A stretch of DNA of 64,000 bases from Phycisphaerales bacterium UBA5793 (GCA_002418285.1 DIDT01000045.1:41250-105249), one strand, 5' to 3'. Counted from the stretch's first letter, positions 4,695 through 19,589 are shown. Made by a program: numbers and translations. The notes: generated by a model not told the origin, from the sequence alone.

Positions 4695-5861
4695 ATGCAA
4701 GTCTGCTTTCACTTTGATGAAAACGCTCTGGGTAGCGGCGCCCGCGCAATTGAGTTCTTGCTTAAGCACGGAAGACGCCGCGACCTCAAGATCCGGTCCA
4801 GACTCTACGGCGGATCGCTTCTCATTCACACGGGTGCCGAAGCGCTAGTCCACCGGGGCCGCACCACCACGAGCAAAACGAACCTGGAAACACTGGAATC
4901 GCTTACTCGCGAGTGGCTAACGCCACAGCCCTTCTGCTGGTTCGGTCTCTTGCCGCGAGCTGTCGAAGTTGTCTCTTCCAGCCACGTCTACTGCACGCTC
5001 TTCGAGACGATCGAGCCTCGCCAAGCCCTGCAACTTCACAGCGCTGCATCGAAAGCGTTGCCGGACTTGTACCTGGGCGCACTTCAAGTCGACGAATGCC
5101 TGCCCTCTCATCTTGCTGGATACCAGCTCATGGCTATGCTCCGAGTTGATGGCAAGGCTGCGTACGTAACTTGGGACGGACTTTCTCCGGACTCAAAGCA
5201 GCCGTGGCTCCTTGAACTGCTTCACCGGGTAGGCTTTGATCCAGTCGATTACGAGGATGTGTCTGCCAAGTTCACGATCTTTGATCGCCACGGCGGCTGC
5301 GACTCAAGGCTCAGATCCGCCCAGTGCCGACGCTCCATGGTCGAACTATTTGATGGGGTAGTTGACTCCTCTCTTGTTCGCATTAGAGACGCCATGCCCG
5401 ACGTCCACGAACGCTTGTGGGCAACACTTCGTGGATTTGAAACAGCGAGCGTCGATGAACAGTTCACCAGCGTCGCACTGGGCTGTCGGCGGCTGATCGA
5501 GTACGCCGCAGACTGCCTCTTTCCTCCCAAAGCGTCGGCTCCAAATGAGCGGAAGCTCGACAAGGCCTCATTCAAAAACCGATTGCTGAAGTACCTGGAG
5601 GAGTGCCAAGTCGAACGGACAGATGTGCGAATGATTGAAGCGAATCTTGAACATGCTGCAGCGTGCGTTGATCGGCTGCTCGAACTCGCAAATCGGGGCG
5701 TGCATTCCAGTTCGACGCGCGATCAGGCGAGGCGGTGTATTCTCGGTACGGTGATTCTCTTGGATGATCTCTGCAATGTCAATCGCAAAGGGTTTGCCGT
5801 GCGCATCTCGCTCAACACGGAGGCAATTGAAGGCATTACAGGGAAACACTCGTCGCCGTAA
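4695..5861 (+). CDS. hypothetical protein; the C-terminal helical region is reminiscent of DUF4145
   Basis: 388-aa ORF convergent with the ATPase-HNH operon. The C-terminal segment ALGCRRLIEYAADCLF...KNRLLKYL...VDRLLELANRGVHSS resembles, from memory, the DUF4145 pattern (CRRxLE ... R..GN..H) seen in restriction- and Abi-associated proteins. The N-terminal 230 aa are unassignable. Confidence 0.5.
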   Translation: MQVCFHFDENALGSGARAIEFLLKHGRRRDLKIRSRLYGGSLLIHTGAEALVHRGRTTTSKTNLETLESLTREWLTPQPFCWFGLLPRAVEVVSSSHVYCTLFETIEPRQALQLHSAASKALPDLYLGALQVDECLPSHLAGYQLMAMLRVDGKAAYVTWDGLSPDSKQPWLLELLHRVGFDPVDYEDVSAKFTIFDRHGGCDSRLRSAQCRRSMVELFDGVVDSSLVRIRDAMPDVHERLWATLRGFETASVDEQFTSVALGCRRLIEYAADCLFPPKASAPNERKLDKASFKNRLLKYLEECQVERTDVRMIEANLEHAAACVDRLLELANRGVHSSSTRDQARRCILGTVILLDDLCNVNRKGFAVRISLNTEAIEGITGKHSSP

Positions 5862-5956
5862 CGATCGTGGCAGTCTGATCCGGGGGCCAGTTGGGACTGT
5901 CCGTCGCCTGTCACGGGGTCGTCCGGCCAGTCCTCTAGCTCTGACTTGAAATGTAA

Positions 5957-5976
5957 AGTCGAGTAGCGTCTCGACT
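5957..5976. terminator. hairpin between convergent genes (AGTCGAG-tagcgt-CTCGACT)
   Basis: Perfect 7-bp stem with a 6-nt loop. It abuts the HNH gene stop codon (5976-5978) and lies about 95 nt after the stop of ORF 4695..5861. There is no strong U-tract. Confidence 0.3.
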
Positions 5977-7097
5977 CAGTTTATCGCGGGAGGTAAGGCA
6001 GGCTCGATCCCCAAGCGCCTCCGGTCTTCTTCGAGTTGCAACAGCGTGTCCTCGATTATCGCCCCGGTTGCAGCTGCAAATCTGTACAGTTCGCAGCAGT
6101 AAATTGCGCGAGCGCGCTTGCCGATCCACGCGGATTCCAGATGGGCCAGGAGCTCGAACTTCTCGACAACGGTTTGCGCATCTACTGGCTGCGTTTCATT
6201 CTTGAGGCAGTCGACCACGCTCCGCTGAATTGTCTGAATGTCGTCCATGATGGCAGCGCCCCAGTATTCAGACAAACGGAACAACCCGTCCAGATTCTCG
6301 ACGCGCTTTGCGTCGGCTACCTCAATAGCCGAAAGCTCTATGCCCAGCGTGCGATCGGGCTTCTCCACGAAGTCGACCGTAAACCGGTTCCTCGCCGTTC
6401 GTAGCCGCGGATGGAACCACTGCGATGCTTGATCTGCTTCATCCCAATCGAGGGGTACCTTGTCCCCCTTGCGATCTCCTTTGTTGGACTCATGGCAGGA
6501 CGGAATCAGATTGTCGGGGTGAACGGACAGAAATGGAAAGGCACTCTTGGGCAGGAAATGATCTACCTCGACGCTCTGTAGTTCACCATCGCAATAGGGA
6601 CAAATTCTCGCACGTGGCGCACGTACGTACAACTCCTTGGTGAGTTTCTCTGGCGCGCCTTGAATCGACACTGGATATCCGAGCGACTTGTTGAGCCATG
6701 GATCGTCGAAAGCGAGCAACAGTCGCCTCATAGCTTCGTGGACGGGCGATTGAGTCCAGTAGTCCCGGTCCGTCTTGCGGAGACGTACCGCCCCGTTCTG
6801 GGCATAACAGTGCCGAAATGCATGCTGCTCCCGCATTACGGCAATGAACTCCTGCTTTGGTCCCTGGTTGGCGCTCGCAATGGTGGACAGCAGCGATTGT
6901 CGTTCGCCGCCACTGTTCGTCCAGAATCTCTGAATCCACTCCCGATCCACTCTCGGCCACGCAACGTCCGACAACCACTGAAGATCAACGGTTGCGCCCT
7001 CGGGTAGCGCGCACAATCGTCGGACGAGACGCCGCTGAAGCACGACAATTCGCAGCATGTTTTGACGAACGGCGGAATCAGGCACCGGGTGTATCAT
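5976..7097 (-). CDS. HNH endonuclease-domain protein (PtuB / TIGR02646-like)
   Basis: 373-aa ORF with an HNH core: ICPYCDGELQSVEVDHFLPKSAFPFLSVHPDNLIPSCHESNKGDRKGDK. Its start (ATG 7097, or alternatively ATG 7058) overlaps or closely follows the ATPase stop at 7078-7080. Confidence 0.8.
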   Translation of the reverse strand: MIHPVPDSAVRQNMLRIVVLQRRLVRRLCALPEGATVDLQWLSDVAWPRVDREWIQRFWTNSGGERQSLLSTIASANQGPKQEFIAVMREQHAFRHCYAQNGAVRLRKTDRDYWTQSPVHEAMRRLLLAFDDPWLNKSLGYPVSIQGAPEKLTKELYVRAPRARICPYCDGELQSVEVDHFLPKSAFPFLSVHPDNLIPSCHESNKGDRKGDKVPLDWDEADQASQWFHPRLRTARNRFTVDFVEKPDRTLGIELSAIEVADAKRVENLDGLFRLSEYWGAAIMDDIQTIQRSVVDCLKNETQPVDAQTVVEKFELLAHLESAWIGKRARAIYCCELYRFAAATGAIIEDTLLQLEEDRRRLGIEPALPPAIN

Positions 7098-8964
7098 CAG
7101 TTATTCCGTCAAGAATCTGCTGCAGCCTGGCTCGCGGCCACCCACCGCCAATCGCCGAAACAAGTGTCTCCAATTCTTCTCGGCTCTTGCCGTCCCATGT
7201 CCGTGCCAAATACCTGCGCAATGCTTGCTCCGCCCGCGAACCTATTGATGCCTGCATTCCGAAGACATGCAGCATCACGCGACCTGGCTCAGCGCCGAAC
7301 GTTGAAAAGGAAACGGGATGAAGTACGGCTTGGCCATACTCACGAGTCAGCCGGACTATCTCACTCGCGAATGCGTCGGTCAGCGCAATGCTCGTATGCG
7401 TAGCAACCATCACTTGAGCCGCGGTCGTCTTCAGCACATTGTCATCGATGATGTCGATGATCTCGCGCTTCCAGGAGTCATTGAAATGAGTCTCCGGCTC
7501 GTCAAGCAAAAGCAGGCTCCCATCCCGCTCTCTCAGCAGCAGCAACAGCGCCATTCGGCCCAGGAGCATGCGCTCTCCGTCGCTGAAGTCGTCCAACGTC
7601 AGGACCACATCATCCAGTTTGCCGTCGTGCGCGGCCATCTGGGTAGTGCGCTTCACGGTGACGGTCACATCTTCGATCAGTCCGGCCGCCCACCATGCGT
7701 GTAGGGCACGGAACACATCCCACAACGCACGATCAGTCCAGTCGGCCGCCTGCTTCCGAACCGTACTCAGCGCGCGTACTACGGCCTCTGCCCCTGAGGG
7801 CGAGCCATCCACGCGATCAACGATCTCCCGCAATGGCTCAGGCACTCGATTGCCAACCGAGACTCCTCGAATGTCTGGCTCGATTCGCCGCTCGAAGCGC
7901 CCAAGATCTATCACCATCTGCAATCGCCCCAACGGCTGTCGAATGACTTCATCTGCGAGTGCCGTCAGGGCCATCCACTGTGCCAGCCACTCCGAGTTGA
8001 GCTCCTGGGAGGGCGGGCGATAGGTGATGCTCAAGTGCGTTGGCCACCACCAATCGATCTCATTCAAAAGCGTGCGCGCATCTTTCTCGGCCGGGCGCTC
8101 TCCTTTCTGCTGCTGAGCCACGGCCGTCCGCAATGCGCTTCGCCATGTGTCCAGTTGCGAGAACGCGGCGCCATCGGTTAACTCTCGTGCCGCCACAATC
8201 AGCCCAACTGAAATGGCTGCCAGTTTTAGATCGTGCGGCCCCAACAGAAGACACTTGGCGTCGGCACCACGATCGGTAGGGTTTATTCGTGCCTGAATCG
8301 CCGCTCGCTCAGACTTATCGATTGCGACCTCTGGGGAATTCAGTTCGCGTTCGACGGTCCACCCTCGCGGCCGGTCTTGATCGTCACTCAACCCGTGATA
8401 GGTGGCATGAGACAAATCGACATCTGACAAATCTGCTTGGCGCACCTTCTCCCATGCGTCCAAGTCACCGGATGTGTATGCCACAACTGACGAGGGAAGA
8501 TACCGACTCACCAATTGGTTGCCGGACATTCGATCGCCCGTGACCGTCTGCGCCCAAAACTCTGCATGCGCCACTTCCTTATCATCAACTGCAGACAGCA
8601 CTTCTACCCAATCAACCTCGTCCTTGCCGGCAATACATGCCTCCCACAAGTGCCAACTCTCCGGAATGACGGCGAACACGGCTTCGCTCGCGGTCTTTCC
8701 CATGTGCCGGAATACCACCATGGCTCGCTCATCGTCTCGATTCATTTCGTAAACGAGCGCTACTGGAAACGGTGGAACGCGTTCGGCTTCCAGCCAGCGA
8801 AATGTCTCATAGACCGCTCGCAACAGACTGCTCTTTCCAGTTCCGTTCAGACCGACGACGAACTGCAATGAGCCTTTGCGATCGAGGATCGTCTCTTCAC
8901 GAAACTCCACCTTGAGATCTCGCAGCACGCCGTAGTCGGGCAGGTGAAGATATCGCAGCCTCAT
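7078..8964 (-). CDS. ABC/SMC-like AAA ATPase (AAA_15/AAA_21 type; PtuA-like, restriction-system-associated)
   Basis: 628 aa with Walker A VGLNGTGKSS, a signature-like FSDGERMLLGRMALL, Walker B LLLLDEPETHF and H-loop VATHTS. The ATG shares ATGA with the hsdS stop at 8961-8964. Confidence 0.85.
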   Translation of the reverse strand: MRLRYLHLPDYGVLRDLKVEFREETILDRKGSLQFVVGLNGTGKSSLLRAVYETFRWLEAERVPPFPVALVYEMNRDDERAMVVFRHMGKTASEAVFAVIPESWHLWEACIAGKDEVDWVEVLSAVDDKEVAHAEFWAQTVTGDRMSGNQLVSRYLPSSVVAYTSGDLDAWEKVRQADLSDVDLSHATYHGLSDDQDRPRGWTVERELNSPEVAIDKSERAAIQARINPTDRGADAKCLLLGPHDLKLAAISVGLIVAARELTDGAAFSQLDTWRSALRTAVAQQQKGERPAEKDARTLLNEIDWWWPTHLSITYRPPSQELNSEWLAQWMALTALADEVIRQPLGRLQMVIDLGRFERRIEPDIRGVSVGNRVPEPLREIVDRVDGSPSGAEAVVRALSTVRKQAADWTDRALWDVFRALHAWWAAGLIEDVTVTVKRTTQMAAHDGKLDDVVLTLDDFSDGERMLLGRMALLLLLRERDGSLLLLDEPETHFNDSWKREIIDIIDDNVLKTTAAQVMVATHTSIALTDAFASEIVRLTREYGQAVLHPVSFSTFGAEPGRVMLHVFGMQASIGSRAEQALRRYLARTWDGKSREELETLVSAIGGGWPRARLQQILDGITDDTPGA

Positions 8965-10745
8965 TCCCCGGGCTCCTTACCTTCATCGCTCCAAGAACCA
9001 GTCTGATCGGCCCAGCTCCCTGCCGCTTGTGTCCACGATTCCGTGACTCGCGCCAAACGAGCCAGCTCCTCCATTCGAGCAAGGTCCGATTGCTGCTCAT
9101 CTGTCGAATTCTCCCGGACCAGGTAGTACATGTTGCCGAACCCGGTTCCGTGGTACTCTTCAATCGGACTACCAGTCACCTCCCCGGCCGGTCGGCTGAC
9201 GAGTTTCACTAGTCCTCGGGCCACGAGAACATCCAAATGGCGCCGCAGCGCATCATCGGCCAGTTCGTGCAGGGGCGATTCCAACCATTCGCGCATTGAA
9301 TGGACGGTAAATGTTGAAAAGACCGCCTCCCGATGCCCCTGGTAGGCGACTTGGTCGAACAATTGCCGCTGTTCGCGCGAGAGATCGGCGAATCTCCCAG
9401 ACCGTGTTAGACTCCCCACGGTCGGCGGTGTCGTTGGTTTCACGAGCTTGACCCCCGCAGACTTGAGGATTGCGTCTCGTTCCATTGCTTCGTGTTCCAG
9501 ACTCTCGCGGTTCGCCACTCGCCACTCGGCAGTAAGCTCGCCACTGAATGCATGTGCGAGTAGAGAGTCATTCAGATCTTTGAGCAGCGCATAGCCGCGC
9601 ATGTGTTCGTCGATTCCACGGACAGCGGACAATCTACTAGTAAAGTGCTTCTGCTGATTCGGCGGCAGAATCGGCACGGGAACGCTCTTGAGCCCGTCAA
9701 TATTGATGTTGTATTGCCCCGCTGAGGTTTTTGCCCTTCGCAGGATATCCATTCGACCACGGACAGTGCGAAGATACGCCAACAATACGTCGGGATGCAT
9801 GATGTCCGGTTTGAGGCGCCCGCGGATCAAGTACGATGCAAAGACGATCGCGTGTCCATCCTGCCCCGCTCTGATCGCGCGGTTCGAAGAAAACGTGGCA
9901 CTACGCCCGATGAACTCCGGATTACCGTTTGTTCGCACGAATAGCAAGTCACCATCGTGCAAAACGAGCTTCTCGAACTCCTGTTGTGTCAGCGACACCT
10001 TGACAAGGTCGTCGTACGACACATCGTTTCCGATCACGTTTGGGATTCGCAGAGTGGTGTATCCATCGTCTCCCGAAGCCGTAGAGGTACCGTATCGGAA
10101 CTCCTCCACAACCTCTCCGAGCGTGGTAGTCGGAAAGTCCACTATGGGATCACCAAACATCTCGTGGAAGATGGCGGGGGTGAGTCTAGCGGTGAGTTCA
10201 TCGGCTCGTCGTCGAAGGCGACGCACGGCGCGAGCCTCTTCGAGTATCGCAACGATGCGGCGCTGCTCACTCAACGGAGGAACGGGGATTGGAGCAACCT
10301 TCAAGAACTCAGCGGGCACTCGCTGCTGACCCGCAGAGCCCGAAAACGCAGCCTCAGCACGAGCGAGGAAGAATGGAGCGCGGATATACAGGAACAACCA
10401 CTCCGGTAAGATACTTGGTCCGGCACGAAGTACATGGAACTCCGTTGACCCGAAACCACGACCGCCCAGGAGGCCACGCGCAATCGCGGCCTTGCCATTC
10501 TGCATGCACGGCGTGATCTTCGCAAACAGGACATCGTTCTCAAGGAACGATGTGTATCCGGTTCGGACCTCGGCGATCTCCCGAATCTCCGGCTCGGCGA
10601 TTTCGCCCATGACCTCGTCGACTGCGGACATCGGCACAAAAGTCACCTCGCCCTCCTCGCCTCTCTCGATATGATCGCGAGGGTTGATCTCACAGACTTG
10701 AGCGAGACGAGCTAGGTACCACGTATTTGGTAATACCGACTTCAA
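8961..10745 (-). CDS. hsdS: type I restriction-modification specificity subunit HsdS with an extra C-terminal extension of about 190 aa
   Basis: There are two target-recognition regions (LPNTWYLARLAQVCEI...; FPTTTLGEVVEEFRYGTS...). They are separated and followed by the conserved helical regions PPLSEQRRIVAILEEARAVRRLRRRADELTARL and LPPNQQKHFTSRLSAVRGIDEHM...LLAHAFSGELT. The start is TTG at 10743-10745, sharing TTGA with the stop of the upstream remnant. The C-terminal tail contains LRRHLDVLVARGLVKLV (winged-helix-like). Confidence 0.85.
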   Translation of the reverse strand: MKSVLPNTWYLARLAQVCEINPRDHIERGEEGEVTFVPMSAVDEVMGEIAEPEIREIAEVRTGYTSFLENDVLFAKITPCMQNGKAAIARGLLGGRGFGSTEFHVLRAGPSILPEWLFLYIRAPFFLARAEAAFSGSAGQQRVPAEFLKVAPIPVPPLSEQRRIVAILEEARAVRRLRRRADELTARLTPAIFHEMFGDPIVDFPTTTLGEVVEEFRYGTSTASGDDGYTTLRIPNVIGNDVSYDDLVKVSLTQQEFEKLVLHDGDLLFVRTNGNPEFIGRSATFSSNRAIRAGQDGHAIVFASYLIRGRLKPDIMHPDVLLAYLRTVRGRMDILRRAKTSAGQYNINIDGLKSVPVPILPPNQQKHFTSRLSAVRGIDEHMRGYALLKDLNDSLLAHAFSGELTAEWRVANRESLEHEAMERDAILKSAGVKLVKPTTPPTVGSLTRSGRFADLSREQRQLFDQVAYQGHREAVFSTFTVHSMREWLESPLHELADDALRRHLDVLVARGLVKLVSRPAGEVTGSPIEEYHGTGFGNMYYLVRENSTDEQQSDLARMEELARLARVTESWTQAAGSWADQTGSWSDEGKEPGE

Positions 10746-11898
10746 ACCCTTTCCTCCACTCGCTGCAGCAGCCCGGCAAGATGGGCGCGAATCTCAGAGT
10801 GGATGCCGTCGAGCTTGCGGATTAGGGCGGCGGGCCTCTCGTGGTCGCCTGGGGCAAAGACAAAGGGTTTATGCCGACCGGCGGAGAGCATCAGATCGGC
10901 TGCCTCGATGCAGTCGGGATCGAGCCGATCGTGGAACTCTTCCTTTACTGTGCCGTCGTCGGAAAAGACATTCAGCCGACTAACAAGAAACTGGAGGTAT
11001 GCGGGATCGACATTGCCCTCCGCGTCGTGGGTCGGCTTGGTGATCTCCTGCTGGGTGTCGGGATCGTTGCCCCATGAGTCAAGGCGTGCCCAGGTGCGGA
11101 CAGGGGTGACCCACGCGAGCGTCTGATCATCCGGCTTCGGATTATCTTCGCTCACCACGCGCTTCTGTTCGCGTTGCTTTGTCTCAACGCCACGGAGCAC
11201 AAGGTCGTATCCGTCAAGCCGGGCGAAGCACTTGAGAATGGCGAGCTGCTCTTCCTCAGTAACTGCGTACTCCTTCGGCTTGGTCCGTTTCGTGCCGCTC
11301 CCGAAGCGACCATTGAGCGCCGTCCGCGCTTCGACTCTCGCCTTTTCGTAGGAGTCCTTCAGTACGGTAAAGGCATACTGGTCGTATTCGCGATCGAGGA
11401 TTCCTTGGTCGCGGTTGAGTTTCACGAGTTCGTTCCACAGCTTCCTGAGTCGGGAGTCGAGTTCCTTGTCGGCCTTGGCGACCTGTTTGGGTTTGGACTT
11501 CTCGTTGCAACCAATTGCGTGGGCGTCATTGACGAACTGCGTGGTGAGACCGTCAATGAGTGCCTCACCCTCCTCGGCCACGCAATCTGTGGCCTCGCCG
11601 GGATCACGGGGAAGGGTGGTGAAAACCTCGTGGATGCCTAACGCGTGACCGCTTTGTGATTGTTCTTCTGGAAAGGCTCGGAGAAAGTCCTCGTCAAGGA
11701 CTCGCCACCGCTCCGGCCAATACTCGGGCTGGTGGTATGCCTTGGTGATGGCCGCAGCACGAAGGCCAGGAGCGTCGGATCCCTAAAGGACCTCGTGCCA
11801 CGCGCGGAACTTCTCGACGGCGTCATACAGATCGTTGTCCTGGCCTTGGCGTTCCCTGCGCTTCTGGTCGAGGGTGAAAGCCTCCTCGGTGACCTCGT
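10742..11898 (-). pseudogene. 5'-truncated ORF of unknown function (possibly the C-terminal part of a large R-M / methyltransferase-associated protein), cut by the IS and carrying an in-frame TAG
   Basis: My translation of the minus frame continues upstream of the listed 279-aa ORF (10742..11581): ...GGKVNEVTEEAFTLDQKRRERQGQDNDLYDAVEKFRAWHEVL*GSDAPGLRAAAITKAYHQPEYWPERWRVLDEDFLRAF...CVAEEGEALIDG.... There is an in-frame TAG at 11783-11785. An upstream in-frame TGA at 11913-11915 lies already inside the IS left end. I recognised no methylase motifs. Confidence 0.6.
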
Positions 11899-11910
11899 TG
11901 ACCTTTCCCC
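11899..11910. repeat. IS3 left terminal inverted repeat
   Basis: TGACCTTTCCCC is the exact reverse complement of 13154-13165. Confidence 0.85.
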
Positions 11911-11952
11911 CTCAAACTGATCCAGATCTAGAGTGGTACTCTGGCGTGGATC

Positions 11953-12246
11953 ATGGAGGACAAGGTCATGAGCAGGAAGCGTTTCTCGGCTGAAGAGATC
12001 GTGAATAAGTTGCGTCAGGCGGATGTGCTGATCTCCCAGGGCCAGACCGTCGCGCAGGTGTGCAAACAGATCGCCGTCACCGATCAGACGTACTACCGAT
12101 GGCGCAAGGAATACGGCGGCCTGAAGACCGACCAGGCGAAGCGTCTGAAGGAACTCGAGCGGGAGAATGCTCGCTTGAAGCGTCTGCTGGCTGATGCGGA
12201 GTTGGACAAAGCGATTCTTCGGGAGGCCGCCAACCCAAACTTCTGA
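11953..12246 (+). CDS. IS3-family transposase OrfA
   Basis: RKRFSAEEIVNKLRQADVLISQGQTVAQVCKQIAVTDQTYYRWRKEYGGLKTDQAKRLKELERENARLKRLLADAELDKAIL is the typical IS3/IS407-group HTH plus coiled-coil OrfA. Confidence 0.9.
   Translation: MEDKVMSRKRFSAEEIVNKLRQADVLISQGQTVAQVCKQIAVTDQTYYRWRKEYGGLKTDQAKRLKELERENARLKRLLADAELDKAILREAANPNF
12234..12240 (+). promoter_or_regulatory. candidate -1 programmed ribosomal frameshift heptamer C CCA AAC
   Basis: In the orfA frame the codons are aaC CCA AAC ttc tga. The orfB frame is -1 and reads ...QPKLLSPQRKRAAVIHVMEQ... through the same site. The heptamer fits the X XXY YYZ pattern, 4 nt before the orfA stop. Confidence 0.6.
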
Positions 12247-12269
12247 GCCCGCAGCGGAAGCGTGCAGCG

Positions 12270-13136
12270 GTGATCCACGTGATGGAGCAGCTGCAGGTCT
12301 CCGAACGGCGGGCGTGTCAGGTATTGCGTCAGTCACGGATGACGCAGCGGTATCTTCCACAGGTTCGCGACGATGAAGAACCACTGACTCAACGGATCAT
12401 CGAGCTGGCGTGCGTGTACGGTCGGTACGGAACACCGAGGATCACGGCGATGCTGAGACGCGAGGACTGGCGTGTGAATCACAAACGGGTGGAACGCCTC
12501 TGGCGTGAGCAGGGACTGCGGATGCCGCGCCGGCAGCCCAAACGCGGTCGATTGTGGCTGAACGATGGATCATGCGTTCGACTTCGGCCGCAGCATCCGG
12601 ACCACGTGTTGGCGTATGACTTCGTGACGGCGCGGACGCACGAGGGCCGACCGTTCCGGATGCTCACGCTGGTGGACGAGTTCACCCGCGAGTGCCTGGC
12701 GATCGATGTGGCGAGGTCGTTGAAGGCGGATGATGTGCTGGAACGTCTGTCCTGGCTGTTCGCGATCCGCAGCGTGCCGGACTACATCCGATCGGACAAC
12801 GGCCCGGAGTTCACTTCGAAGGTGGTGCGGGACTGGCTGAATCGTGTCGGAGTGAAGACCTTGTTCATCGAGCCGGGCAGCCCGTGGGAGAACGGGTACG
12901 TGGAGAGCTTCAATGGCAAGCTGCGCGATGAACTGCTCAACGGGGAAATCTTCTATACTCTGAGGGAGGCAAAGGTGCTGACCGAACGATGGCGTGTGCA
13001 CTACAACAGAATCAGGCCGCACTCATCACTGGGCTACCGGGCGCCGGCCCCCGAGACGTTGGCTCCGATGGAGTCGTGCTCCGCTGCGCTGCGCACGTCT
13101 CCATCGGGTGTGCATTGCACCGAAGGACTAACATAA
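12270..13136 (+). CDS. IS3-family transposase OrfB (integrase/DDE core), normally made as an OrfAB fusion
   Basis: The translation contains VSERRACQVL...YGRYGTPRITAMLRREDWRVNHKRVERLWREQGL...AYDFV...LVDEFTRECL...IRSDNGPEFTS...FIEPGSPWENGYVESFNGKLRDELL...YNRIRPHSSLGY. The frame is open upstream to about 12222, consistent with frameshift fusion. Confidence 0.9.
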   Translation: MIHVMEQLQVSERRACQVLRQSRMTQRYLPQVRDDEEPLTQRIIELACVYGRYGTPRITAMLRREDWRVNHKRVERLWREQGLRMPRRQPKRGRLWLNDGSCVRLRPQHPDHVLAYDFVTARTHEGRPFRMLTLVDEFTRECLAIDVARSLKADDVLERLSWLFAIRSVPDYIRSDNGPEFTSKVVRDWLNRVGVKTLFIEPGSPWENGYVESFNGKLRDELLNGEIFYTLREAKVLTERWRVHYNRIRPHSSLGYRAPAPETLAPMESCSAALRTSPSGVHCTEGLT

Positions 13137-13153
13137 ACACTGGTACGAAACCC

Positions 13154-13165
13154 GGGGAAAGGTCA
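13154..13165. repeat. IS3 right terminal inverted repeat
   Basis: GGGGAAAGGTCA. Its last three bases supply the TGA stop (minus strand) of the neighbouring gene 13163..14299. Confidence 0.85.
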
Positions 13166-14299
13166 CGATCCAGAGATCGTCACATCCATCATGGCTCCGG
13201 CGAACATGGTGTTCGGAAATACGTCGTCGACATTCACTTCGCCAGGTGGCGGCGGAGCGATCTCGGCGCGCCACATTATCGCTTCATTGCGCTGGCGTTT
13301 GGTGTTGTAGCCATAACCAACGGCGTACACATAGGTGTCATCGTGCCAGACTCCACCCGCCATGGAGCTCTCGTACCTGCTGGGCAGGAACGCGTGCAGG
13401 TCCACGTAGGACTCGGGCGTGCCGCTCCACAGGGCGGCGCGATAGAGGTCGGGGGCGTAGACAAAGCCCACCTGGTACTCGCCGTCTCCACCCAGGCCCT
13501 CCGAGCTCCTGTTTACCCCGGGAGGATGCAGGTCCACCCAGGACTCGGCGGTTCCGTTCCACAAGCAGGCGTGAAAGCGCAGGGGTGAGCCCACCTTTGC
13601 GTAGCCCACCTGCTGGCCGCCACCCACGCCGAGGGCAAACGAAAGATCCGCGCCTGCGGGGTGCAGGTCAACCCATGACTCGGGCGTGCCGGTCCACAGG
13701 CCGGCGTGAGGACCGTCGCCCATGCCCGCCACGCCCACCTGCTGCCCTCCGTCCGCGTCACTGGCCTGAGCATTGGTCGCCCCGGCCCAGTAGGGAGTCA
13801 GGTCCACATACGACTCGGGTGTACCGTTCCACAAGCAGGCATATGGAGTTCCGGCGATGTAGAACCGGCCTACCTGTTGTCCACCATCGACACCGGTGGC
13901 GAACGATTGATCCGCGCCGGCGGGATGCAGGTCGACCCACGACTCGGGCGTGCCGGTCCACAGGCTGGCGTGATTGACGCCGTCCAGGGTGGCGTAGCCC
14001 ACCTGCTGGTAGCCGTTCATGCTGGATGCACTCGAGTTGCTCATCCCGGGGGGGTGCAGATCCACCCACGAGTTGGCGCTGCCGTCCCACAGGATGGCGC
14101 GTACGAAGCCACCCACATTGGCCCTGCCGACCTGCTGGCCGCCGTAGACGTCTGAAGCGCTCGAGCCGGCCGCCCCGCCGGGGTGCAGATAGATCACGTC
14201 CCACTGGGCATTCGCGCCCACCGGCGTTGCGAATGCGACGGCGCTAAGAGCGAGAATCTGCCAGGCGATCTGGCGTCCTTTTGTATTAACACATCCCAT
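13163..14299 (-). CDS. secreted repeat protein (about seven 45-aa GGQQVG...LW.GT.ESWVDLHP repeats, HAF-like), probably 3'-truncated by the IS
   Basis: The start is set at ATG 14297-14299 (MGCVNTKGRQIAWQILALSAVAFA signal-like), preceded by AAAGGA. The repeats are readable in the translation. The stop codon lies inside the IS inverted repeat. Confidence 0.7.
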   Translation of the reverse strand: MGCVNTKGRQIAWQILALSAVAFATPVGANAQWDVIYLHPGGAAGSSASDVYGGQQVGRANVGGFVRAILWDGSANSWVDLHPPGMSNSSASSMNGYQQVGYATLDGVNHASLWTGTPESWVDLHPAGADQSFATGVDGGQQVGRFYIAGTPYACLWNGTPESYVDLTPYWAGATNAQASDADGGQQVGVAGMGDGPHAGLWTGTPESWVDLHPAGADLSFALGVGGGQQVGYAKVGSPLRFHACLWNGTAESWVDLHPPGVNRSSEGLGGDGEYQVGFVYAPDLYRAALWSGTPESYVDLHAFLPSRYESSMAGGVWHDDTYVYAVGYGYNTKRQRNEAIMWRAEIAPPPPGEVNVDDVFPNTMFAGAMMDVTISGS

Positions 14300-16407: not shown

Positions 16408-17919
16408 CTACTGCACAAGCAAAACGTCTGTGGTGGCACATGTGGTCAGGTCAATCGCCTGGACGAAGACGTGTCCGCAGGCGGCATTGGGGACGTTGGG
16501 GATGTCGAGGTTGGCCGTGCCGTTCGCATTAGCGCGGACGACGTCGGCGAGTTGCGCGGTGTTGTTCAAGCCCAGTGTCGTGCCGGCGCAGGGGTTGCCC
16601 TCGGGAATGCGCAGTCTCCCTTCGCCGCGCGCGTAGAGATAGGCCACACGCTCATTCGGCGTGGCGCCTTGGACACTAAATCGCATTGCGCCCGGGCAGG
16701 AACCCAGAACACTGAGTGTCGGTCCGTCTCCACAGTTGAGATCGAAGACGTACGCTGAGCCGGAGTTCGTGCCGCGGTCATCGTCGCCGTACGATCCCAC
16801 GAAGATCGTGCTGCCACTGATCGAGACGGACCGGCCGAACCAGTCGCCGGCCCAGCCGTCGGAGGCGAGGAGTTTGGCCGACTCTGTCCATACACTGCCG
16901 ACCTTCTCGAAGATGTACGCGGATCCGGAGTTATCGCCGACGTCATCGTCCAGGTCGGCGCCAACGACGATGACGTCCCCGCTCAGGACGGCGGAGCAGC
17001 CGAAGTGGTCGCCTGCCTGCCCGACAGAGGCGATGAGTTTCTGCTCGTCGACCCACGATGAGCCATCGAAGCGGAAGACGTACGCCGAGCCCGAGTCTGC
17101 GCCGAGGTCGTCGTCTTCTTTTGCACCGACCACCGCGTTGTCTCCGCTCACGGCAACGGAGCAGCCGAAATAGTCTGACATCTCGCCATCGGAGGCGAGT
17201 AGTTTTTGTTCCTCGATCCACGAAGAGCCAATGAAGCGGTAGATGTACGCTGAGCCGGAGTCTGTACCGCGGTCATCATCGCCGTACGCTCCCACGACGA
17301 TCGTGTTACCGCTGATGGAGACGGACTGGCCGAACCAGTCGCCGGCCGAGCCATCGGACGCCCGCAGTATCTGTTCCTCGACCCACTCGGAGCCGGCGTA
17401 GCGGAAGACGTATGCCGAGCTGATTTTGCCGTTGTGGGCTCTCGTCGCTCCGACGACCGCAATATCTTCTTTCACCGCGACGGAGTGTCCGAAATGGTCG
17501 CCCTGTTCACGATCTGAGGAAACCAGAATCTGTTCCTCGACCCATTCGGAGCCATCGAAGCGGAAGACGTACGCTAAGCCGCCGTTACTGTCCCAGTTCG
17601 CACCGATGATGGCGATATCGCCATCCAAGGCGACGGACCACCCGAACCGGATGCCGGAGACGAAGGACCTCTGCTCCTCGATCCACGAGGTGCCGTTCCA
17701 TCGAAAGAAATACACCGAGCCGACAGCCCACGCACCGACAACGGCAACGTCCCCGTCCACGGCGAGGGAGCTACCGAACAAATCGTACTGTTCGCCGTCG
17801 GAGGCGAGCAGCTTGGCCGTCTCTTCCGGATCGCATTGCGCGCGGGCTACCGAATCAACGAAAGGGAAGCACAGCGCTGCGGCGATCATGATGGAACCTG
17901 AAATTCTCGTCGATTTCAT
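16408..17919 (-). CDS. secreted FG-GAP-like beta-propeller repeat protein with a shared Cys-containing C-terminal domain
   Basis: It has a signal peptide (MKSTRISGSIMIAAALCFPFVDSVARA) and about seven repeats of the form KLLASDG..D.FG.SV.ISG...VVGA..DD..G..SGSAYVF. The C-terminal 105 aa are nearly identical to the C-terminus of the next gene. Confidence 0.8.
   Translation of the reverse strand: MKSTRISGSIMIAAALCFPFVDSVARAQCDPEETAKLLASDGEQYDLFGSSLAVDGDVAVVGAWAVGSVYFFRWNGTSWIEEQRSFVSGIRFGWSVALDGDIAIIGANWDSNGGLAYVFRFDGSEWVEEQILVSSDREQGDHFGHSVAVKEDIAVVGATRAHNGKISSAYVFRYAGSEWVEEQILRASDGSAGDWFGQSVSISGNTIVVGAYGDDDRGTDSGSAYIYRFIGSSWIEEQKLLASDGEMSDYFGCSVAVSGDNAVVGAKEDDDLGADSGSAYVFRFDGSSWVDEQKLIASVGQAGDHFGCSAVLSGDVIVVGADLDDDVGDNSGSAYIFEKVGSVWTESAKLLASDGWAGDWFGRSVSISGSTIFVGSYGDDDRGTNSGSAYVFDLNCGDGPTLSVLGSCPGAMRFSVQGATPNERVAYLYARGEGRLRIPEGNPCAGTTLGLNNTAQLADVVRANANGTANLDIPNVPNAACGHVFVQAIDLTTCATTDVLLVQ
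16471..16704. repeat. 234-bp near-identical copy A (encodes the shared C-terminal domain)
   Basis: Hand alignment against 17997..18230 gives about 9 mismatches in 234 positions. Confidence 0.8.
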
Positions 17920-17933
17920 GTTGATAGTCCTTT

Positions 17934-19589
17934 TCAGTCGACGATTGCCACGTTGCTCGTCGCGCAGGCGCTCAGATCGATCGCCTGGATGTAGATGTGT
18001 CCGCAGGCGGCGTTGGGGACGTTGGGGATGTCGAGGTTGGCCGTGCCGTTCGCATCAGCGCGGACGACGTCGGCGAGTTGCGCGGTGTTGTTCAGACCCA
18101 GTGTCGTGCCGGCGCAGGGGCTGCCGTCGGGAATGCGCAGTCTCCCTTCGCCGCGCGCGTAGAGATAGGCCACGCGCTCAAGCGGCGTGGCGCCTTGGAC
18201 ACTAAATCGCATTGCGCCCGGGCAGGAACCGAGGATGGAGAGATCGGGACCCGCAGGAACGCCGTCGAGGAACAGCACCCACACCGCGCCGCGGTCCCTG
18301 CCCCCGTCGTCATCACCCCCCGCCCCCACGGCGAGGTCTTCCACACCGTCGCCGTCGAAATCGCCCAGGGCGGCCACAGATTGGCCGAACCAATCGGCAT
18401 CATCCAGGGCACCTTCGAAGCCGCCTTCCGTGTCGCTGACCTTCTGGTGAGACTTGACCGTGCCGTTGCTGTTGAGGAACAGCACCCACACCGCGCCGCG
18501 GTCGTTGCCCCCGTCGTCGTCTACCTGTGCGCCTACGGCCAAGTCGCCCACGCCGTCACGGTCGAGATCACCCGGCGCGGCCACCGACGTGCCGAACCGA
18601 TCGTTATCATCCAAGATGCCGGTGAAGCCGCCATATGTGTCGCTGATCTTCTGGTGCGACTTCACCGTCCCATCCGTGTTGAGGAACAGCACCCACACCG
18701 CGCCGCGGTTATCACCCCCGTCGCTGTCCAAGTTTGCGCCGACGGTCAGATCGCTTACATCGTTGCCGTCGAGATCACTCAGCCAGGCGATTGACCGGCC
18801 GAACCAATCTTCGTCAGTCAGGAGACCGGTGAAGCCGCCATCGGTGTCGCTGATCTTCTGGTACGACTTCACCGTCCCATCCGTGTTGAGGAACAGCACC
18901 CACACCGCGCCGCGGTTGTTCCCCCCGTCATCGTCTTGGATGGCCCCCACTGCCAAGTCGGTCACGCCGTCACGGTCGAGATCACCCAGCGCGGCCACCG
19001 ATGTGCCGAACCGATCGTTGTCATCCAGGAAGCCGGTGAAGCCGCCTTCGGTGTCGCTGATCTTCCGGTAAGCCTTCACTGTGCCGTCGGTGTTGAGGAA
19101 CAGCACCCACACCGCGCCGCGCTTGTTCCCCCCGTCATCATCCAAGTTCGCCCCCACGGCCAGGTCACACACGCCATCGCCGTCGAGATCGCCAAGTGAG
19201 GCTGCAGAGACGCCGAATTCATCCCCATCCCTCAGGACGCCGGTGAAGCCGCCTTCGGTGTCGCTGATCTTCTGGTGCGCCCTGACGGTCCCGTTGGGGT
19301 TGAGAAACAGCACCCATACCGCGCCGCGGTCAGTTCCCCCGTCATCGTCTTGGCTTGCCCCAACGGCGAGGTCGCCCACGTCGTCGCCATCGAGATCGCC
19401 CAGCGCGGCAACCGTCCAACCGAACCAATCGTTGTTGTCCAGGAGGCCACTGAAGCCGCCGTCGGTGTCGCTGATCTTCTGCTGCGACAGGACCCAGCCG
19501 GGCTGAGCCAGCGCGGCACTGGCTAATGCGAGGTTGGCGGCCACGACCGGAACTATGCTGTTTCTATTCCTGAATGCCCGCGGTAACAC
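17934..19589 (-). CDS. secreted FG-GAP/VCBS-type beta-propeller repeat protein with a shared C-terminal domain
   Basis: The start is GTG at 19587-19589, preceded by AAGGAGA. It has eight repeats of about 70 aa: QKISDT.GGF.G.L...D.FG.SVA.LGDLDGDGV.DLAVGA..DDDGG..RGAVWVLFLN.DGTV. The repeat period of about 207-216 bp is visible at nucleotide level. Confidence 0.85.
   Translation of the reverse strand: MLPRAFRNRNSIVPVVAANLALASAALAQPGWVLSQQKISDTDGGFSGLLDNNDWFGWTVAALGDLDGDDVGDLAVGASQDDDGGTDRGAVWVLFLNPNGTVRAHQKISDTEGGFTGVLRDGDEFGVSAASLGDLDGDGVCDLAVGANLDDDGGNKRGAVWVLFLNTDGTVKAYRKISDTEGGFTGFLDDNDRFGTSVAALGDLDRDGVTDLAVGAIQDDDGGNNRGAVWVLFLNTDGTVKSYQKISDTDGGFTGLLTDEDWFGRSIAWLSDLDGNDVSDLTVGANLDSDGGDNRGAVWVLFLNTDGTVKSHQKISDTYGGFTGILDDNDRFGTSVAAPGDLDRDGVGDLAVGAQVDDDGGNDRGAVWVLFLNSNGTVKSHQKVSDTEGGFEGALDDADWFGQSVAALGDFDGDGVEDLAVGAGGDDDGGRDRGAVWVLFLDGVPAGPDLSILGSCPGAMRFSVQGATPLERVAYLYARGEGRLRIPDGSPCAGTTLGLNNTAQLADVVRADANGTANLDIPNVPNAACGHIYIQAIDLSACATSNVAIVD
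17997..18230. repeat. 234-bp near-identical copy B
   Basis: See 16471..16704. Confidence 0.8.

Follow-up and report, generated by a model that had tools for sequence, protein, structure and literature searches.

An insertion sequence at the junction of two truncated genes: evidence for a probable IS-associated deletion in a type I restriction-modification operon

How does a single insertion sequence (IS) come to lie between the broken ends of two different genes? The question is raised by a 64,000-nucleotide stretch of DNA (the window) from Phycisphaerales bacterium UBA5793, in which an IS3-family element has part of a restriction-modification (R-M) gene on its left and a shortened repeat-protein gene on its right. 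The original prediction for this locus was a rearrangement, either recombination between two IS copies or an adjacent deletion, in which the repeat gene lost its 3' end and the R-M gene its 5' end. The two truncations, and the recurrence of the junctions in other assemblies, fit the rearrangement. That it was specifically a deletion is the best explanation rather than a proven one; we put its probability at roughly 0.65.

The element itself is intact (Table 1). Its boundaries and perfect 12-bp terminal inverted repeats are as first described, and a relic of the element and its relatives give the boundaries independent support. With one mismatch allowed, the repeats match at only these two places in the 64-kb window, which holds no second copy of the IS. 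The TG...CA termini and the length fall within the IS3-family pattern (TG...CA repeats, 1.2-1.55 kb). Pfam recognizes the domains HTH_Tnp_1, HTH_21, rve and rve_3, and the score for NCBIfam model NF033516 (transpos_IS3), 225.4 bits, is well above the cutoff of 160, identifying an IS3-family DDE transposase. The two open reading frames are arranged as is usual for the family: the orfB frame, open from 12195, is -1 relative to orfA, for which the JGI start call is 11968. The slippery heptamer in orfA is the predicted site of a programmed -1 frameshift into orfB.

Table 1. Features of the insertion sequence and its surroundings, in window coordinates
Feature	Position	Strand	Evidence or remark
HNH-like partner (PtuB / PDC-M01B-like), intact	5976..7097	-	PADLOC PDC-M01B, E = 1e-18; PtuB, E = 4.5e-7
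Restriction-system-associated AAA ATPase (PtuA-like), intact	7078..8964	-	PADLOC PtuA, E = 9e-36
hsdS, full length, two target-recognition domains	8961..10745	-	PADLOC Specificity_I, E = 1e-89; Pfam Methylase_S
hsdM pseudogene remnant, last 385 codons	10742..11898	-	tblastn and homologue alignments
In-frame TAG in hsdM remnant	11783..11785	-	closest homologues have Gln
IS3-family insertion sequence, intact	11899..13165	+	1,267 bp; terminal repeats, Pfam and NCBIfam
IRL TGACCTTTCCCC	11899..11910	+	exact reverse complement at 13154-13165
orfA, HTH transposase N-terminal protein	11953..12246	+	Pfam HTH_Tnp_1, E = 2.7e-17
CCCAAAC slippery heptamer	12234..12240	+	read from sequence; C CCA AAC in orfA frame
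orfB, DDE (rve) transposase catalytic part	12270..13136	+	Pfam rve and rve_3; NCBIfam IS3 family
IRR GGGGAAAGGTCA	13154..13165	+	terminal TCA = TGA stop of truncated minus-strand gene
Secreted repeat-protein gene, 3'-truncated	13163..14299	-	homologue alignment

Within the IS3 family, the element probably belongs to the IS407 subgroup, an assignment based on what we take to be a resemblance of its inverted repeats to those of IS407. Like members of that subgroup, it is ~1.27 kb long, has TG...CA ends of the form TGRCCT..CCCC, and carries orfA and orfB in 0/-1 frames with a slippery heptamer and an rve DDE domain. The nearest named relatives are ISMdi16 and ISMex5, with OrfB identity of 63-65%. 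By nucleotide comparison it is an unnamed IS: apart from the relic, no other element found is more than 81% identical.

What did the left end of the IS interrupt? The original prediction saw a minus-strand, R-M-linked ORF, coupled to hsdS and deprived of its 5' part at the IS, and placed hsdM possibly in the lost segment. The truncation and the coupling are as described; the TGA of the ORF overlaps the TTG start of hsdS (TTGA, 10742-10745). The homology search proposed at the time identifies the full-length parent as hsdM, encoding a type I methylase of ~770-830 amino acids (best match 50% identical). The ORF is the C-terminal extension of hsdM, and what has gone is the 5' part of that same gene. 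Homology to full-length proteins starts at the first codon of the flank: tblastn places residues 446-648 of P0017, a homologue with a complete N-terminus, onto 11896..11291. The N6_Mtase domain of P0017 occupies residues 165-481, and PF02384 lies upstream of the aligned part in the hsdM homologues; the remnant retains nothing of HsdM_N and next to nothing of the N6_Mtase domain. It has no Pfam, NCBIfam or PADLOC match, no HsdM with a catalytic N6_Mtase domain was recognized, and the N-terminal part of HsdM is absent from the 64-kb window. The in-frame TAG, also noticed earlier, is the only interruption between the IS boundary and 10742. At this position the closest homologues have Gln (VLQGTD or VIQGSD), which fits one CAG>TAG nonsense mutation.

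The rest of the operon can be compared with its orthologue in Stieleria magnilauensis (CP036432), where the order is hsdR-hsdM-hsdS-ATPase-HNH. The window hsdS, with the two target-recognition domains of a type I R-M specificity gene, aligns collinearly with its Stieleria counterpart over residues 1-577 of 594. The AAA ATPase aligns to its orthologue over residues 1-623 of 628 and the HNH-like protein over residues 1-355 of 373. PADLOC points to a Septu-like pair, although the NCBIfam scores for PtuA, PtuB and TIGR04435 are all under their cutoffs (for TIGR04435, the ATPase scores 103 bits against 300). Searching with Stieleria HsdR (tblastn, E <= 0.01) gave no match in the 64-kb window. By analogy with Stieleria, the window operon has probably lost hsdR together with the 5' portion of hsdM.

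In Stieleria, too, an IS has inactivated hsdM within this unusual operon of long-tailed HsdM, HsdS, AAA ATPase and HNH-like protein. There, however, an IS4-like element with 29-bp inverted repeats has simply inserted, with a ~10-bp duplication, and hsdR and both halves of hsdM are retained; the window lacks half of hsdM and all of hsdR. Stieleria thus shows what a simple insertion into hsdM looks like, and the arrangement in the window is unlike it. Judged by its gene content, the type I system of the window is dead; hsdS survives as an orphan, and the PtuA/PtuB-like ATPase-HNH pair embedded in the operon remains intact.

On the right of the IS, the repeat protein retains its signal peptide and its tandem '..LW.G...SWVDLHP.G' repeats. 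The ORF ends in ...TISGS and a TGA that, as had been proposed, is supplied by the IS: it is the reverse complement of the terminal TCA at 13163-13165. Homologues (P0021, P0023, P0024, P0027 and P0028) run on for ~70 amino acids after ...TI(T/S)GS. A C-terminal IPT/TIG-like domain is cut after its first ~25 residues, with the loss of ~70 codons; the TIG matches of the homologues are weak (21.3 bits for P0027 against a cutoff of 20.9). The remainder of this domain is found nowhere in the 64-kb window. A tentative alignment in the original prediction, in which the gene stops about where its paralogues begin a CPGAMRFSVQGATP domain, was wrong. That domain is found in FG-GAP paralogues, which form a separate family whose C-terminus differs, and we rejected it as the end of the repeat protein.

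Both genes are broken at the ends of the IS. Does the IS also lack a target duplication? The mismatch of the bordering triplets (CGT on the left, CGA on the right) had been noted at the outset, and the 4-bp (TCGT / CGAT) and 5-bp (CTCGT / CGATC) flanks differ as well; at none of these IS3-family lengths is there a duplication. The IS407 subgroup is reported to make 4-bp duplications (PMC10045372), and these are missing both here and in four related elements. The relatives, which are 75-81% identical to the window IS and come from different metagenome or MAG assemblies, have the same TGACC...GGTCA start and end, and the starting base of IRL is also that of three of them (L027, L032 and L009). 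Since all four lack a duplication, its absence is weaker evidence for a rearrangement than the original prediction assumed, and it may not be diagnostic for this IS lineage. On comparison of the flanks we would still attribute the missing duplication of the window IS to later rearrangement, though the four relatives also have none.

It had been suggested that other copies of the IS be mapped and their duplications inspected. This yielded the relic and the four relatives; it yielded no source-genome copies in which an exchange of duplications could be traced. A degenerate 25-mer for both IS ends, run against metagenome_contigs and genome_contigs, neither of which contains the source genome, returned only relatives at <=81% identity or solo ends. 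The relic is a 370-bp sequence on a different contig from this metagenome, 96.5% identical to the window IS up to ...GGTCA and divergent beyond; the right boundary of the IS is supported because homology ends there. Neither hsdM nor repeat-gene sequence occurs in the flanks of the relic. The hsdM flank contains a TGACCT motif 3 bp from IRL, as an insertion targeted to an inverted repeat might leave. Nothing similar is seen in the flanks of the relatives, and we treat it as a coincidence.

Both junctions recur in other assemblies. The one between hsdM and IRL is found at 100% identity in two Logan contigs, assembled from two other runs, and the one between IRR and the repeat gene at 100% identity in one Logan contig from another run. 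These contigs end inside the IS, 71 bp in on the left and 45 bp in on the right. The right-hand break, at 13120, coincides with the first mismatch to the relic and therefore needs no second full IS copy. Together, the Logan breaks and the relic mean that IS-like sequence beyond the window copy is present in the community. The proteins of both flanks, OrfA and OrfB lie on a 202,086-bp NCBI contig with the same linkage as on the 181,054-bp source contig; linkage across the IS rests on these two assemblies, which may not be independent. A cross-genome chimera was rejected: GC is similar on the two sides, and the tetranucleotide correlation between them (0.92-0.96) is no different from that inside the right flank. 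Protein databases contained no close relative lacking the IS, the best matches being 50% (hsdM) and 62-64% (repeat gene) identical.

An IS without a duplication, flanked by non-contiguous parts of different genes, has the form of an IS-associated deletion junction. In the explanation we prefer, an IS3-family element would have entered either hsdM or the repeat-protein gene, and the DNA between that end of the IS and the other gene would then have been lost. The loss could have come about through a transposase-driven adjacent deletion, or because the IS recombined homologously with another copy in direct orientation. Either route would leave a single IS with unrelated flanks and no duplication, and a repeat protein ending at a stop supplied by the IS. 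The lost DNA would include at least ~1.3 kb of 5' hsdM sequence (HsdM_N and the catalytic domain) and ~0.2 kb from the 3' end of the repeat gene. If, by analogy with the orthologous operon, hsdR went too, the minimum would be ~4.4 kb. Deletion presupposes that hsdM and the repeat gene were neighbours in the ancestor, an arrangement we infer. Because both broken genes lie on the same strand, a simple interstitial deletion is favoured.

Recombination need not have cost any DNA. Had IS copies in hsdM and in the repeat gene recombined by inversion or translocation, hybrid flanks without a duplication would be expected equally, and the missing parts would lie beside a reciprocal copy elsewhere. Other IS-like sequence is indeed present in the community, and our inspection covered 64 kb of the genome only. 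We nevertheless consider this unlikely. The exact OrfA and OrfB sequences occur at one place only in the collection searched, and their 90% clusters contain the full copy, the 370-bp relic and nothing else. When the HsdM N-terminus was used as query, no reciprocal 5' fragment stopped at the VWFY breakpoint; all matches were contig-end fragments continuing past it. Moreover, deletion yields co-oriented broken genes directly, whereas inversion needs a particular starting arrangement. The HsdM N-terminus search also bears on an assembly error, in which two ordinary insertions, each with its duplication, were spliced so that one contributed the left flank and the other the right: complementary halves turned up on no contig. 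In favour of such an error, the sequence comes from a metagenome contig, k-mer assemblies of two runs stop within the IS at either end, and the mismatched flanks of all four relatives are what a general artefact would give. Yet unresolved repeats usually break assemblies and are seldom joined, the linkage is the same in two assemblies, the right-hand break falls where the relic first differs, and one mismatched relative (L032) sits on a 129-kb MAG contig. A mis-join is, in our judgement, decidedly unlikely. We also rejected joint insertion of a low-GC defence island and the IS into the repeat gene; the TIG remainder is absent from the island's other edge and from the rest of the window.

Could the deletion and the arrival of the IS have been one event? 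The IS might have entered a double-strand break, or transposed along with a deletion, with no staggered cut and no earlier simple insertion, as Ngan et al. propose for IS5 and IS481 events without duplications (PMC11708052). All five full-length members of the lineage examined, the window copy and its four relatives, lack a 3-5-bp duplication. A single end-state sequence in no way separates one step from two, but each of the 14 IS150 deletions could be followed back to an earlier insertion and a subsequent adjacent deletion (PMC11708052), and we regard a single step as very improbable. The same five of five would underlie a broader suggestion, that this lineage habitually integrates without a duplication, often losing adjacent DNA, so that the absence is its normal signature and no secondary scar. 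Such integration might proceed through entry into DNA breaks or through one-ended, deletion-coupled transposition. We give this suggestion very little credence.

IS-associated deletion, our preferred reading, has a close parallel in another IS3-family element, IS150: of its 83 events in the long-term evolution experiment with E. coli, 14 were adjacent deletions, none with a duplication (PMC11708052). As in the window, the element is left at the deletion junction with a different truncated sequence on each side; there, however, the ancestor is known and each deletion was traced stepwise (PMC11708052), whereas a distant orthologous operon serves as guide to the ancestral arrangement of the window. 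The two elements also differ in subgroup and in host phylum. Genome reduction in Burkholderia mallei offers another parallel: recombination among IS407A copies leaves, at the sites of deletions and inversions, elements whose flanking duplications do not match. B. mallei has many identical IS407A copies; for the window IS, a single full copy and a single relic came to light.

An IS-associated deletion that disables a phage-defence system is an ordinary, well-known phenomenon, and the understanding of IS biology is unchanged by it. This locus would be one further example of IS-driven erosion of defence islands, in which a planctomycete-like genome appears to have lost a type I R-M system through an IS while retaining hsdS and an intact pair of ATPase/HNH defence genes. 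For annotation, hsdM becomes a pseudogene, hsdS an orphan and the repeat protein truncated. The remaining thread is that a duplication is lacking in every relative of the IS examined. One ISMdi16 copy, on a finished plasmid, is likewise without one, and at least one of the related elements also adjoins a truncated gene.

Two different genes, each lacking one end, flank a complete insertion sequence (IS) that is a new, unnamed member of the IS3 family. The best explanation of this locus is an IS-associated deletion, to which we assign a probability of about 0.65. The element itself looks functional because its ends are complete, orfA and orfB are present, and the two are arranged in a -1 frame with a slippery heptamer. 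The inverted repeats read TGACCTTTCCCC at one end and GGGGAAAGGTCA at the other, a motif with no further match in the 64-kb window even when one mismatch is tolerated. orfB can be read from 12195 in the -1 frame relative to orfA, and the transposase scores 225 bits against the NCBIfam model transpos_IS3 (cutoff 160). The limits of the element are backed independently. A 5'-truncated relic of 370 bp (L021:10038-10407), found on a different contig of the same metagenome (JGI contig Ga0119857_1000043), covers IS positions 898-1267 at 96.5% identity; its match runs to ...GGTCA and diverges beyond. Four relatives in other assemblies, all metagenome or MAG copies with 75-81% nucleotide identity to the IS, share the same first and last bases. 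The exact OrfA and OrfB pair occurs at a single place among the gene positions indexed.

Features of the IS and its flanks (window coordinates)
Feature	Position	Strand	Remarks
HNH-like gene	5976-7097		full length versus Stieleria orthologue
PtuA-like AAA ATPase	7078-8964		full length versus Stieleria orthologue
hsdS	8961-10745		full length versus Stieleria orthologue
Complete insertion sequence	11899-13165		1,267 bp; perfect 12-bp inverted repeat at ends
orfA	11953-12246		HTH_Tnp_1 match
Slippery heptamer C CCA AAC	12234-12240		in orfA/orfB overlap; canonical X XXY YYZ form
orfB	12270-13136		HTH_21, rve and rve_3 matches
Repeat-protein gene	13163-14299	minus	signal peptide and tandem repeats, motif LW.G...SWVDLHP.G

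What was broken on the left? The remnant is hsdM itself, with only the long C-terminal extension kept, since tblastn aligns it with P0017, an HsdM homologue with a complete N-terminus. Residues 446-648 of P0017 map to 11896..11291, beginning at the first codon beyond the IS, and its HsdM_N and N6_Mtase domains occupy residues 6-151 and 165-481; the gene lacks about 445 codons (about 1.3 kb). The remnant has 18 relatives in a database search, the only 18 among 5.8 billion proteins, most of them annotated as type I M proteins in which an N6_Mtase domain precedes the aligned region. Neither the remnant nor the ~385-aa C-terminal extension of this HsdM subfamily (the remnant and homologues P0002-P0018) has a match in Pfam, NCBIfam or PADLOC. 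From the IS boundary to 10742 the minus-strand frame is open but for one TAG at 11783-11785, where the closest homologues have Gln (VLQGTD, VIQGSD), a pattern that a single CAG>TAG change would explain. The remnant is free of frameshifts, so its decay looks recent. Its stop overlaps a TTG start of hsdS (TTGA at 10742-10745).

On the right, the repeat protein terminates in ...GEVNVDDVFPNTMFAGAMMDVTISGS, and the next codon, TGA, is the IS-terminal TCA read on the minus strand. The five closest homologues of the same architecture continue for ~70 residues beyond ...TI(T/S)GS in the pattern GF.PGA.VTF.NG...VRVTNPD.STG....FTV, a region with weak IPT/TIG matches (one homologue narrowly above the Pfam threshold); the gene therefore breaks off about 25 residues into its final domain. 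The original prediction had correctly described the loss of the 5' part of the left reading frame at the IS, its internal TAG and the borrowed TGA on the right. Its tentative alignment of the right-hand end with the start of the CPGAMRFSVQGATP domain of neighbouring paralogues is rejected: these FG-GAP proteins belong to a different family, and their C-terminal domain is unrelated to the C-terminus of the truncated gene. The two adjacent FG-GAP paralogues (16408-19589; 503 and 551 aa) share a near-identical C-terminal domain of ~95 aa, SVLGSCPGAMRFSVQGATP..., which has no family match.

The missing HsdM N-terminal part, HsdR and the TIG remainder were found nowhere in the 64-kb window by tblastn. 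Their absence rules out the co-insertion of a slightly low-GC defence module and the IS into the repeat gene. Stieleria magnilauensis (CP036432) has an orthologous operon in the order hsdR-hsdM-hsdS-AAA-HNH-like, and its hsdM (L020:7663-11506) is likewise split, but by an IS4-like element with 29-bp inverted repeats. That element is bordered by a direct duplication of ~10 bp, TAACCGCGAG, whereas the window IS has none; both hsdM halves abut it (P0017 residues 1-331 and 328-645), whereas the window keeps the 3' part only. The Stieleria locus is thus a positive control for simple insertion, and the window is unlike it. Because the Stieleria IS is a different element and lies ~115 codons upstream of the point at which hsdM is broken in the window, this rare operon type has been struck by an IS independently in the two genomes. 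By analogy with this operon, the segment lost from the window would have spanned hsdR (~2.8 kb) plus 1.3 kb from the 5' end of hsdM. Adding the ~0.2 kb missing from the 3' end of the repeat gene would put the loss at no less than about 4.4 kb.

The flanks carry no target duplication of 3, 4 or 5 bp (CGT left and CGA right; TCGT and CGAT; CTCGT and CGATC); the differing triplets and the perfect repeats had been reported originally. Duplications in the IS3 family are reported to be 3 bp in most subgroups, 4 bp in the IS407 subgroup and 5 bp in the IS2 subgroup (PMC10045372). None of the four full-length relatives recovered (L009, L015, L027:4736-6008 and L032:2787-4079) carries a 3-5-bp duplication either, nor does a copy of ISMdi16 on the finished plasmid of M. 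extorquens DM4 (L035:528-1798). In the L032 relative, the right flank is an ATPase-like ORF truncated at its N-terminus. Such duplication-free copies may result from frequent rearrangement, from artefacts of assembly or from an unusual mode of integration. Since the relatives lack duplications too, the strong evidence here lies in the truncation of both genes rather than in the lack of a duplication. The hsdM flank also carries a TGACCT 3 bp from the terminal TGACCT of the IS, in the same orientation (11890-11904). It could be a coincidence or a hint of insertion beside a sequence resembling the inverted repeat; the flanks of the relatives hold nothing like it.

In an IS-associated deletion, the original junction would be retained at one end of the IS and the DNA past the opposite end lost, either by transposase-mediated adjacent deletion or by recombination with a second copy in the same orientation. 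Such events are well precedented in the family: of the 83 IS events in three populations of the E. coli long-term experiment, 14 were deletions associated with IS150. No duplication accompanied any of the 14, and each was traced to a prior insertion followed by adjacent deletion (PMC11708052). A one-step insertion without duplication, coupled to deletion, is the least probable reading of our locus. Inversion or translocation through a second IS copy is unlikely: no second copy or fragment was found in the 64-kb window, and a search with the HsdM N-terminal part gave no reciprocal hsdM fragment. The relic shows that this IS lineage has undergone other deletions within the same community; it adjoins an ORF resembling the YD/RHS-repeat type.

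Could the locus be a mis-join across a repeated IS? We think this less likely still, as two assemblies give the same linkage. The arrangement is contained in a contig of 181,054 bp from JGI metagenome 3300029304 (Ga0119857_1000012), and the proteins of both flanks are recorded with OrfA and OrfB on an NCBI contig of 202,086 bp, a second assembly that may not be independent of the first. The left junction (hsdM and left inverted repeat) is present in Logan assemblies of two other runs, with 100% identity over 11.2 kb and 8.2 kb, and the right junction (repeat gene and right inverted repeat) in a third Logan contig, with 100% identity over 3.4 kb. The two flanks are alike in tetranucleotide composition. 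Logan contigs from two SRA runs (L037, L038, L040) end inside the IS, 71 bp from the left (11969) and 45 bp from the right (13121), so variant or partial IS sequence is also present in the samples. The right-hand end falls where the relic first differs from the IS (13120) and needs no other full copy; the left-hand end implies that the samples hold a further variant or partial version of the IS 5' region, which was not located.

The core of the original prediction thus stands, with details corrected: both genes are truncated and their missing parts are absent from the window, while deletion as against inversion or mis-join is unproven. Of its suggestion that hsdM and hsdR were removed, the 5' part of hsdM is indeed gone and the loss of hsdR is probable by analogy, but the 3' part of hsdM remains. 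The phenomenon is an ordinary one, in which a new IS3-family element has disabled a type I restriction-modification system. The defence module (~5000-12000; HNH-like gene, AAA ATPase, hsdS and hsdM remnant) has a GC content of 0.56-0.59, compared with 0.60-0.65 in the DNA around it, which would fit an island acquired by horizontal transfer, with the IS now at its right edge. In both loci inspected, the long-tailed hsdM is followed by hsdS, then the AAA ATPase, then the HNH-like gene.
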